This document shows, in pieces, positions 10,881 to 12,062 of a stretch of 61,596 nucleotides of DNA. This DNA comes from a virus. The notes below the pieces were generated by a model, which was given only the letters and a program-made list of their open reading frames with translations, made no database searches and was not told the origin of the DNA. Both the position numbers and the translations under genes were made by a program. The stretch lies in IMG/VR virus record IMGVR_UViG_3300009111_000003; one strand, given 5' to 3'. Position 1 is the stretch's first letter. Every line of letters begins with the position of its first letter.

Positions 10881-11128
10881 AGCGGATTTTGCCCCGTTCG
10901 TGCCAGTCGATCGGTTTTTGGCTAAAAAGCGAGAAATCGAGATGAAAAGTTCTCGGTATATGCAATTCGTGGGACTGGGTTGGGTAGTGAATGAAATAGT
11001 AACTCACTGAAATCGGGCACCCTCCATGCCCGTTGCAAAGCGCGCATGCAAAACTGGTATGCAATAAAACGCATATTGTATGCAAAGTAACGTAACGGTA
11101 ACGCCCGACCCAAAACGCGTTTTGACCG

Positions 11129-11156
11129 TTGCACTTCACGCCTGCACGGGCATAAT
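11129..11156 (+). promoter_or_regulatory. Candidate sigma70-type promoter for paralogue 1 (TTGCAC-16-CATAAT)
   Basis: The sequence reads ttgcac ttcacgcctgcacggg cataat. The downstream leader carries three GGCAGGCA motifs (11201-11248). Confidence 0.4.
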
Positions 11157-11253
11157 CATTAGTGACGCCCTCACGGGGCGCACGCACGTTGACAAGTGAA
11201 GCGTGGCAGGCAGGCAGTGCAGGCGCACTGTTTGACTGATAGGCAGGCACACA

Positions 11254-11886
11254 ATGAAGTATGAAGCGCGTTTGACTGTAGTGAAGGCACTGCACGCACT
11301 AGGCAAGGCACTTGTTGACCTACAAGCACTGTTTGACACAACGCCCGTCAACAAGCGCGTGCAGGCAGTGAAGGCGTTTGACAGGGCACTGTTTACGGCA
11401 TGCGTTGACGCGCATGACGGCAACGCTGATACCGCTATCAGGCAGTGCCGTTTTCACGCCTTCACGTTGCCCTACGTTGACGCTGTAGGGCATGCGTTTG
11501 CCGTTGACGGTGGCGCAAAGCGCGGGCAAGTGACGCTACTCACTTGCACTGATACAACGGGCAAGGCGTTTGCCGTTATCACTGCACTTGACGGCAACGC
11601 TGCAAGCACAAAGTGCGTTGACACGTTCACGGGCACGCTAGCGTTTGACCGTGCAAAGGCGTGCTACCGTGCAGTGCGTGAGGGCATGCCCTACGTTGTG
11701 AAGGCAAAGGGCAAGTTTGCCGTTAGTGACAACGGGGCGCACGTCAACGCTGCACTTGTTACCGTTGCAGCGTATGAAGGCGCAACGGGCAAGGCAAAGC
11801 GCACGTTTGACGTGTACCGTGCGCACGGCACAAAGGGCAAGGGCACGGCATACCGTGCAAGTGAGGGCAAGGCACAAAGGCAGTAA
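11254..11886 (+). CDS. Unknown protein, paralogue 1 (210 aa), with atypical composition
   Basis: It aligns collinearly with ORF 12294-12851 (RFHAF, GHAFAxDGGxKRGQ, RAKAxYRAxREGxPYV, KGKFAV, HVNAA). There is no canonical SD. It lies in the VGA/TCB-free island. Confidence 0.7.
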   Translation: MKYEARLTVVKALHALGKALVDLQALFDTTPVNKRVQAVKAFDRALFTACVDAHDGNADTAIRQCRFHAFTLPYVDAVGHAFAVDGGAKRGQVTLLTCTDTTGKAFAVITALDGNAASTKCVDTFTGTLAFDRAKACYRAVREGMPYVVKAKGKFAVSDNGAHVNAALVTVAAYEGATGKAKRTFDVYRAHGTKGKGTAYRASEGKAQRQ

Positions 11887-11923
11887 CAAGGGCAACGCCT
11901 GCCACGCTTTACTTGACGGCACG

Positions 11924-11958
11924 GGGCGCATGCTACACGGCATGCGCCCTTTGCTTTG
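11924..11958 (+). terminator. Rho-independent terminator
   Basis: 10-bp stem gggcgcatgc / gcatgcgccc with loop tacacg, followed by tttgctttg. Confidence 0.7.
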
Positions 11959-12062
11959 CCCGTATGCAAACGCATCAATAGCCGATTTTATGCCATAGGA
12001 AAATCACTGCACCACGCTGTAGTGCGATAGTGGCACTTGGAAAACGCCCGAAAACTCAAGAG

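Follow-up and report, generated by a model that had tools for sequence, protein, structure and literature searches.

A cassette purged of VGA/TCB trinucleotides opens the early arm in a clade of uncultured tailed phages from freshwater and wetlands

The window analyzed here is the whole 61596-base stretch of viral DNA recorded as IMGVR_UViG_3300009111_000003. It is a siphovirus genome with genes for a large terminase (TerL), the portal, capsid and tape-measure proteins, Pol III alpha and ThyX, and also for an SNF2 helicase and a primase-helicase. The minus strand (40313-61596 and 1-10563) carries the structural and lysis genes, and the plus strand (11254-40255) carries the early and replication genes. 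Gene no. 1 of the plus arm, which directly follows a divergent intergenic region bordering a putative small-terminase gene, lies in an island that is almost entirely free of the trinucleotides VGA and TCB (V is A, C or G, and B is C, G or T, so that VGA on one strand is TCB on the other). The island was first pointed out in an earlier note made from the sequence alone. Its main features are as follows.

11024-11982: island free of VGA/TCB with one exception, spanning the upstream region, leader, open reading frame (ORF) and terminator
11024-11997: zone free of RGA/TCY with zero exceptions, a 975-bp gap slightly wider than the VGA void
11106-11108, plus strand: the lone exception, a CGA
11254-11886, plus strand: 210-codon ORF, the island copy of a duplicated gene
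12294-12851, plus strand: paralogue of normal composition, 185 amino acids, 50% identical to the island protein, with 72 VGA/TCB

Exact counting gives 7208 VGA/TCB in the whole window, a density of 0.117 or one per 8.5 bases. About 112 are expected between 11024 and 11982 and one is found there, in agreement with the near-total absence originally described. Between 11027 and 11982, GA occurs 32 times, always as TGA apart from the one CGA, and TC occurs 12 times, always as TCA. The longest gaps between motifs in the window are both located here (877 bp at 11106-11983, then 83 bp at 11023-11106), and none elsewhere exceeds 77 bp; in 750 kb of unrelated phage contigs, used as a control, the longest gap is 142 bp. 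Sliding 300-nt counts have a mean of 35 and a standard deviation of 7, and they fall to 0 in the island and never below 18 outside it. When 422 motifs of two to four letters, including degenerate ones, were scanned for gaps, TCB/VGA gave the strongest void (log10P -43.5), and every motif unrelated to it was far behind.

The coding rules that the note had read from the ORF also hold: each of the 18 Asp/Glu codons is preceded by a codon with a final T, Ser is encoded only by AGY, and there are no GGA, AGA or CGA codons. The paralogue is as motif-rich as stated, with 35 of its motifs in the first 230 nt. In a gene-by-gene test of VGA content, the island gene has z = -9.2 and all other genes have z of at least -3.2, and the late structural genes are rich in VGA (capsid gene, z +5.5). 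Since no other gene is depleted and the late genes are VGA-rich, whatever reads the motif would matter only early, at the start of infection. The capsid gene and other late genes (2655-3686, 4854-5936 and 54357-55310) carry more VGA/TCB than expected from their amino acids and the codon usage of the genome, with z of +3.8 to +5.5. The GC content of the island is only slightly raised, at 0.567 versus 0.543.

The depletion is conserved in related phages, which had been raised as a question. We gathered relatives via TerL and then scanned their contigs; their loci are called L002, L004, L005, L089, L092 and L095 below. A void occupies the same position in L002, L004 and L092 (gaps of 715, 665 and 952 bp, respectively) and is leaky in L095 (5 motifs in ~730 bp). 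The TerL proteins of these void-bearing relatives are 61-75% identical to that of the window. When the five islands are pooled (4174 bp), 8 motifs are observed versus 433 expected; AGA, GGA and CGA are all depleted, and no unrelated trinucleotide is consistently so. In all five phages, the void begins ~100-230 nt before the start codon and stops shortly past the terminator, which defines a single cassette with the promoter region included. In each island, the void for RGA/TCY extends further than that for VGA, and the exceptions are mostly CGA/TCG, so the rule is strict avoidance of RGA, less strict avoidance of CGA and tolerance of TGA. GC content is 2-7 points higher in the islands than in their genomes, and the palindromes GCGC, ACGT and TGCA are enriched in them.

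The island is not universal in this group. In L005 and L089 the first early gene has normal composition, and no void for any other motif was found there either. Island-bearing and island-less phages are interleaved on the TerL tree, with the leaky L095 in a basal position, so the trait is old, and losses or gains of it have occurred repeatedly. The tree suggests that the island is ancestral and that its patchy distribution reflects at least two losses.

An artefact of assembly or engineering, an imported composition or a single mutational process might in principle produce such a void, and we regard this group of explanations as extremely improbable. The window is natural, since its sequence turns up in more than 20 contigs, the runs belonging to six studies of freshwater, wetland and subsurface sites; among public runs, none of RNA is listed as containing the island. 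Comparison with contigs of four public runs revealed no variants, and these contigs lack informative cover of the island. There are no close DNA relatives among deposited phages, and a search for clues to the host in bacterial genomes gave only distant matches, in metagenome-assembled genomes. An enrichment of AAA/TTT and CAA/TTG in the island of the window is what C-to-T change at TCB would give. However, the note had argued from different routes to avoidance, and these are borne out: comparing the normal and the island copy, V-to-T changes, any change of the G and any change of the A occur in similar numbers, at all three positions of the motif. The use of all substitution types excludes a single mutational process. 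A hypermutated duplicate, such as a deaminase or a process like repeat-induced point mutation would leave, was rejected for the same reason and because the islands are richer in GC and not shifted to AT.

Age and coding constraint lead to the same conclusion. The L004 and L092 islands have a saturated dS of 1.7, with 43% amino-acid identity and a dN/dS of ~0.3-0.4. The void has therefore been maintained through a full turnover of silent sites, in genes whose protein is also constrained. In the codon-shuffle test that had been proposed, permuting the ORF's own synonymous codons gave a mean of 24 motifs and a minimum of 14 in 2000 trials, and 0 are observed; across the island ORFs, such shuffles gave 19-24 motifs and never fewer than 10 (2000 trials). 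Values this far above zero imply that codon neighborhoods have been tuned. An encoding with zero motifs is possible for the island proteins, and the corresponding minima for the normal paralogues are 2, 6 and 10, which indicates that the amino-acid sequences have adapted too. The orthologue of the island gene in a further phage (P0003, available as protein only) could likewise be encoded with 0 motifs, as could only 3% of control 200-amino-acid pieces.

The effect is positional and not bound to a single protein family: island proteins of the window type and of the L004 type have no detectable homology to each other, and each resembles a neighbor or orthologue of normal composition. The L004 island gene is 31% identical to its neighbor and 45% identical to the L005 gene, whose composition is normal. 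Import of a donor's composition was rejected on this basis, as the island genes are related to local genes of normal composition and it is codon order that is tuned, not only codon usage. Import, hypermutation and artefact are thus refuted, and the evidence supports the view that the void is kept by selection on a strand-symmetric DNA word.

The level at which this word is read can be approached through its symmetry. As had been noted, the absent words AGA, CGA and GGA are the exact reverse complements of the absent TCT, TCG and TCC, and the allowed TGA is that of TCA. Because forbidden and tolerated words are exact reverse complements, the factor would read double-stranded DNA or either single strand, not messenger RNA (mRNA). 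Avoidance of CRISPR PAMs, effects of tRNAs or codons, and avoidance of internal Shine-Dalgarno sequences were considered and rejected, as the rule is independent of frame, holds in non-coding parts and exempts TCA and TGA. Neither the DarT motifs (TNTC for DarT2, no consensus for DarT1) nor the bacterial Dpd motif (CxGCxG, ~1 per 1000 nt) matches VGA.

Signals in and around the island were located as follows.

11005-11013, plus strand: CACTGAAAT box, kept upstream of the first early gene in the window, L002, L004, L005, L089 and L092
11129-11156, plus strand: possible sigma-70-like promoter, TTGCAC, 16 nt, CATAAT; weak, read by eye and not called by the scanner
11193-11211, plus strand: 5'-leader arm of a complementary pair that brackets the ORF, 19 nt, 18/19 complementary
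11897-11915, plus strand: 3' arm of that pair, pairing with 11193-11211
11923-11960, plus strand: intrinsic terminator with a 12-bp stem and a TTTGCTTTG tail, the tail also being present at the end of the L004 island

The island had been described as spanning a promoter-like region, the leader, the ORF and its terminator. The terminator is confirmed, at 11923-11950, and the leader and ORF stand; the promoter-like region is only a weak match to the consensus. Its -10 element and an AGTGA after it are common to the window, L002 and L004. The RGA-free zone begins at or just past the CACTGAAAT box in these same three phages. In relatives, the box is found at ~1096 in L002, ~8520 in L004, ~8359 in L005, ~715 in L089 and ~4260 in L092 (minus strand of the loci), usually 27-50 nt past a -10-like element, TATGCT or TATGCA. 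The box may mark an early-promoter leader or be a cis site such as cos.

The extent of these signals bears on an explanation at the RNA level, namely that the transcript escapes a short-motif endoribonuclease, whether of a toxin-antitoxin system, an abortive-infection system or a phage shut-off mechanism. The void does coincide with one transcription unit, from leader to just past the terminator, and the mRNA may be built for stability: the long-range complementarity between 5' and 3' ends is 18/19 in the window and 15/15 in L092 (3812-3826 with 2997-3011), values reached by 0 of 200 dinucleotide shuffles in either. Relatives also have AAGGGTGA in place of a GGAG-type Shine-Dalgarno sequence. 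Escape from MazF by transcripts lacking ACA offers a parallel, since a gene without the three-letter target stays expressed while others are shut off. However, MazF acts on one strand at the RNA level, and reverse-complement sets are not expected from an RNase of this kind. In addition, depletion in the window reaches ~130 nt upstream of the likely -10 element. Given the exact reverse-complement sets and the depletion upstream of the likely promoter, escape from an RNase, one of the options in the note, is disfavored, and we consider it very improbable. The complementarity was not significant in L002, L004 and L095 and is hence not a general feature of islands; where present, it could form an mRNA panhandle or an RNase III site.

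Translation signals are also unusual. As the note had observed, the leader of the island gene lacks the GGAGG-type Shine-Dalgarno sequence found before other genes; the island gene of the window has AGGCAGG only. The first early genes of the clade (in L002, L004, L092, L095 and L005, and also at 12270-12293 of the window) have the ribosome-binding word AAGGGTG(A/G) and not the GGAGG of most genes, a choice that avoids GGA.

Further features lie on the terminase side of the island.

7725-9335, minus strand: TerL, the query used to find relatives
9832-10497, minus strand: 221-amino-acid Cys/His-rich conserved protein upstream of TerL, putative small terminase and first long gene of the divergent arm
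10564-11004: intergenic region separating the divergent terminase and early arms, in which a TGCCTACGCTTTTTT element occurs in direct and inverted copies

This intergenic region holds three copies of a TGCCTACGCTTTTTTT element, one of them inverted (10600-10614, 10825-10849 and 10865-10889), plus larger inverted repeats. L004 and L092 have A-run elements and GGGGATCCCC-type elements related to those of the window. The intergenic repeats may represent bidirectional terminators, an origin or a packaging site. A gene of ~900 codons spans the ends of the window (1-1208 and 60096-61596, minus strand), which means that the record is circularly closed or permuted and that physical termini cannot be read from it. 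The short repeats that flank islands differ by lineage. In L092 (2720-2930 and 3930-4230), TTAAG/TTAAC-type arrays occur on both sides in inverted orientation; in L004, four TGATCAGA-type words lie directly past the terminator (~7540-7640); and in the window, several TGCGA words occur at 12000-12290. These flanking repeats look like operator-like or stop-signal-like sites.

Such repeats raise the possibility that the void serves another cis function of the DNA, e.g., as an origin, as an injection or packaging signal or in excluding a DNA-binding protein, or that the island is a mobile unit with inverted repeats. Inverted repeats are present at the island edges in the window and L092, and the lineage-specific short repeats are located just outside islands. 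However, the protein encoded by the ORF is under constraint, islands with differing flanking repeats obey one and the same three-letter rule, and the island genes derive from a local gene family. We found no convincing Chi-like or other over-represented word common to the islands. An explanation of this type is, in our judgment, quite unlikely.

The island protein offers few clues. That of the window has no family, fold or solved-structure match in family libraries or with Foldseek against PDB and BFVD (E <= 0.001), and its AlphaFold model is poor (pLDDT 57). Atlas gave only weak leads, DUF1508 and BrnT/DUF4258, with TM below 0.5. Homologues of the duplicated gene family, compared as proteins, were found in one other phage, which has orthologues of both copies; scans with an alignment of the pair gave no further match in viral or metagenome contigs. 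The island proteins are small and basic, and hhalign detects no homology between those of the window type and those of the L004 type.

One might suppose that the cassette encodes or activates a VGA-specific nuclease or modifier directed against host DNA, and that its own gene is free of sites in order to stay expressed. That the gene for a short-motif nuclease should lack the nuclease's own site is known logic, e.g., in ACA-poor MazF targets, and it is an open question how the first-step DNA of phage T5 escapes the degradation of host DNA that it triggers. The weak similarity to BrnT/DUF4258 toxins mentioned above would also fit. Nonetheless, such an activity would attack the VGA-rich remainder of the phage genome, and the orthologue of the island genes in L005 is normal in composition. 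Between lineages, island proteins have no detectable homology, and no nuclease fold or family was found for the island protein. We therefore regard self-immunity of this kind as improbable.

The main rival to the reading that we favor below is that virion DNA is modified post-replicatively at VGA/TCB, either at the G (as in GA-specific insertion of deazaguanine) or at the T or C of TCB, and that the first cassette must stay unmodified in order to be recognized and transcribed by the unaided host RNA polymerase, its product then enabling the rest to be transcribed. A strand-symmetric void that covers one cassette including its upstream region is consistent with this idea, as are the few tolerated sites, which indicate a graded effect. 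Two-letter modification motifs do exist in phages; DpdA of phage iggy acts on GA at 97% of sites. The window also has a cluster of nucleotide-metabolism genes (31450-35090 and 38381-39088) that encodes a phage-type FAD-oxidoreductase-like protein, a MazG-like dUTPase_2/NT5C fusion, two uncharacterized proteins, a short-chain dehydrogenase/reductase and ThyX. With these we count a SLOG protein, and this unexplained set could possibly have a role in base modification. A weak match to a Lar-like restriction-alleviation zinc ribbon is present at the C-terminus of a 154-amino-acid early protein (17470-17934).

However, searches of the complete genome with Pfam, PHROGs and NCBIfam detected no DNA methyltransferase, DpdA/TGT, QueC/D/E, FolE, hydroxymethylase kinase or glycosyltransferase family, nor any further enzyme known to modify DNA. 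We are also unaware of any case in which a phage modification stops transcription by the host and makes an unmodified starting cassette necessary. Moreover, the phage that does have modification-type genes is the one without an island, L005. Its structural arm (L005 17341-18520) has a QueC-like gene (Pfam E 1e-4; Atlas 0.96 to viral QueC clusters) adjoining a queuosine-precursor-transporter (YhhQ-like) gene, and a gene resembling SAM methyltransferases lies between its SNF2 helicase and a PD-(D/E)XK nuclease (8611-9327 of a further locus, L100). None of the three has a homologue in the window (the QueC-like and YhhQ-like genes were searched for with tblastn), and DpdA was not found in the ~36 kb of the L005 phage that is readable. 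Overall, the hypothesis of a cassette that must stay unmodified appears unlikely to us. Known deazaguanine transglycosylases of phages act on the G of GA (PMC10484667), and what the two phages carry fits a different relationship, in which the modification genes of L005 and the island of the window would be two alternative ways to hide GA-containing sites.

The note had left the interpretation between evasion of a short-motif nuclease, modification enzyme or RNase and a need to remain unmodified. Selection on a DNA word is upheld by the results above, the RNase is disfavored, and the need to remain unmodified, though still conceivable, finds no support in the gene content of the complete genome. 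Our own preference, held tentatively and at somewhat less than even confidence, is that the island is a pre-early "stealth" cassette evading a factor that acts on DNA and recognizes RGA strongly, CGA more weakly and TGA not at all. In the early arm, the island comes first among the transcription units and, to judge by genome geometry, is probably also the first DNA to enter the cell; with a lambda-like cos geometry, island DNA would be packaged last and enter first. A DNA-level factor of very short specificity, which we would expect to be a host defense nuclease or a DNA-modifying defense enzyme, would act on the incoming genome before any phage counter-measure. The motif-free cassette would be transcribed intact, and its small basic protein would presumably neutralize the factor or otherwise let infection proceed. 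Afterwards, the remainder of the genome, normal or high in VGA, would be safe. The position of the island at the head of the early arm fits a cassette that is the first expressed and perhaps the first to enter.

Several points weigh against this proposal. To our knowledge, no bacterial defense nuclease or modifier has three-letter specificity. A factor that cuts double-stranded DNA would have to be kept from the VGA-rich remainder until the protein has been produced, which would call for stepwise or slow entry, and an assembly that is circular or permuted does not give the physical termini. In the library and Foldseek searches, the protein showed no recognizable fold or family. The tolerated sites (1 in the window, 1 in L004, within the ORF, and 5 in L095) fit a graded cost better than lethal cleavage. 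Finally, the correlation with modification genes comes from one lineage, and no DpdA was found in the ~36 kb read of that phage.

The stealth cassette may be compared with several known systems. Gene 0.3 (Ocr) of phage T7 lies at the leading end and supplies an anti-restriction function, being the first gene to enter and to be expressed, while the rest of the DNA is still unexposed. However, Ocr is an acidic mimic of DNA and the island proteins are basic without a fold match, T7 has no comparable motif void, and its entry is driven by transcription. Degenerate three-letter DNA specificity is used in virus-host conflict by the nicking enzymes of chlorella viruses, Nt.CviPII (CCD) and Nt.CviQII (RAG), but these belong to viruses of eukaryotic algae and come with cognate methyltransferases, and nothing related was found in the window. 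Avoidance of restriction sites likewise results from selection, which eliminates from both strands the words that DNA-cutting enzymes recognize. In its classical form, it is genome-wide and concerns mostly palindromic words of 4-6 bp, whereas the void described here is local and non-palindromic, and palindromic tetramers are enriched in it. The DpdA enzymes of phages iggy and CAjan share a DNA-level specificity that is essentially GA (PMC10484667), and L005 has QueC-like and transporter genes. The differences are that the window has no DpdA or preQ0 genes and that TGA is spared in the islands, in contrast to iggy, where the modification affects nearly every GA site.

The closest case is the first-step-transfer DNA of T5, a short leading segment that is expressed ahead of the remaining genome. 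It has to be free of sites targeted by host defenses, being exposed at a time when the protective phage functions have yet to be produced (PMC10644984). T5-like phages resist restriction-modification, CRISPR and Ssp if the sites are absent from this DNA, and sites elsewhere are harmless (PMC10644984). The resemblance is that the void of the window is confined to the first cassette and that the genome is otherwise rich in the motif, as seen in the z values and 300-nt counts. On the other hand, the T5 segment is ~10 kb long, lies in a terminal repeat and lacks ordinary sites of 4-8 bp, whereas the window has a ~1-kb cassette, a degenerate three-letter word and an adapted protein. Two-step entry is moreover a feature of T5, and the window is known here from assembled sequence alone. 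The note knew of no described system with this signature, and our limited literature search agrees, the nearest being T5 first-step-transfer DNA (PMC10644984). Within the limits of that search, the motif-void cassette is undescribed, and it represents a new, extreme variant of target-site avoidance in the first-exposed DNA of a phage.

A complete local purge that reshapes even the protein sequence is a direct footprint of a factor that reads the purged word. We know of no bacterial defense, phage nuclease or modification enzyme with VGA/TCB specificity, and should the reader of the motif turn out to be an enzyme of a new kind, the finding would fall into a category of its own. From the footprint one can read which motif is targeted and when the factor would act (ahead of every phage gene product), and it supplies a candidate counter-protein. 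Normal-composition paralogues and island-less relatives serve as natural controls, so that a player in phage-host conflict becomes testable. The unbiased scan for the largest motif gap can be applied to all viral contigs and to other motifs.

The finding also bears on an old question in T5 biology, how the first-entering DNA is protected. For this clade of uncultured freshwater and wetland tailed phages, the purge points to a factor that reads a very short DNA word as infection begins. A broader scenario, which we offer as a possibility and with some reserve, is that freshwater and wetland bacteria, or their phages, have a DNA-acting factor, either a nuclease or a base modifier, with an effective specificity of three letters. 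The clade would answer it with a motif-void "ignition cassette" that disarms the factor, and a sister lineage would instead mask its DNA by means of a deazaguanine pathway and a methyltransferase.

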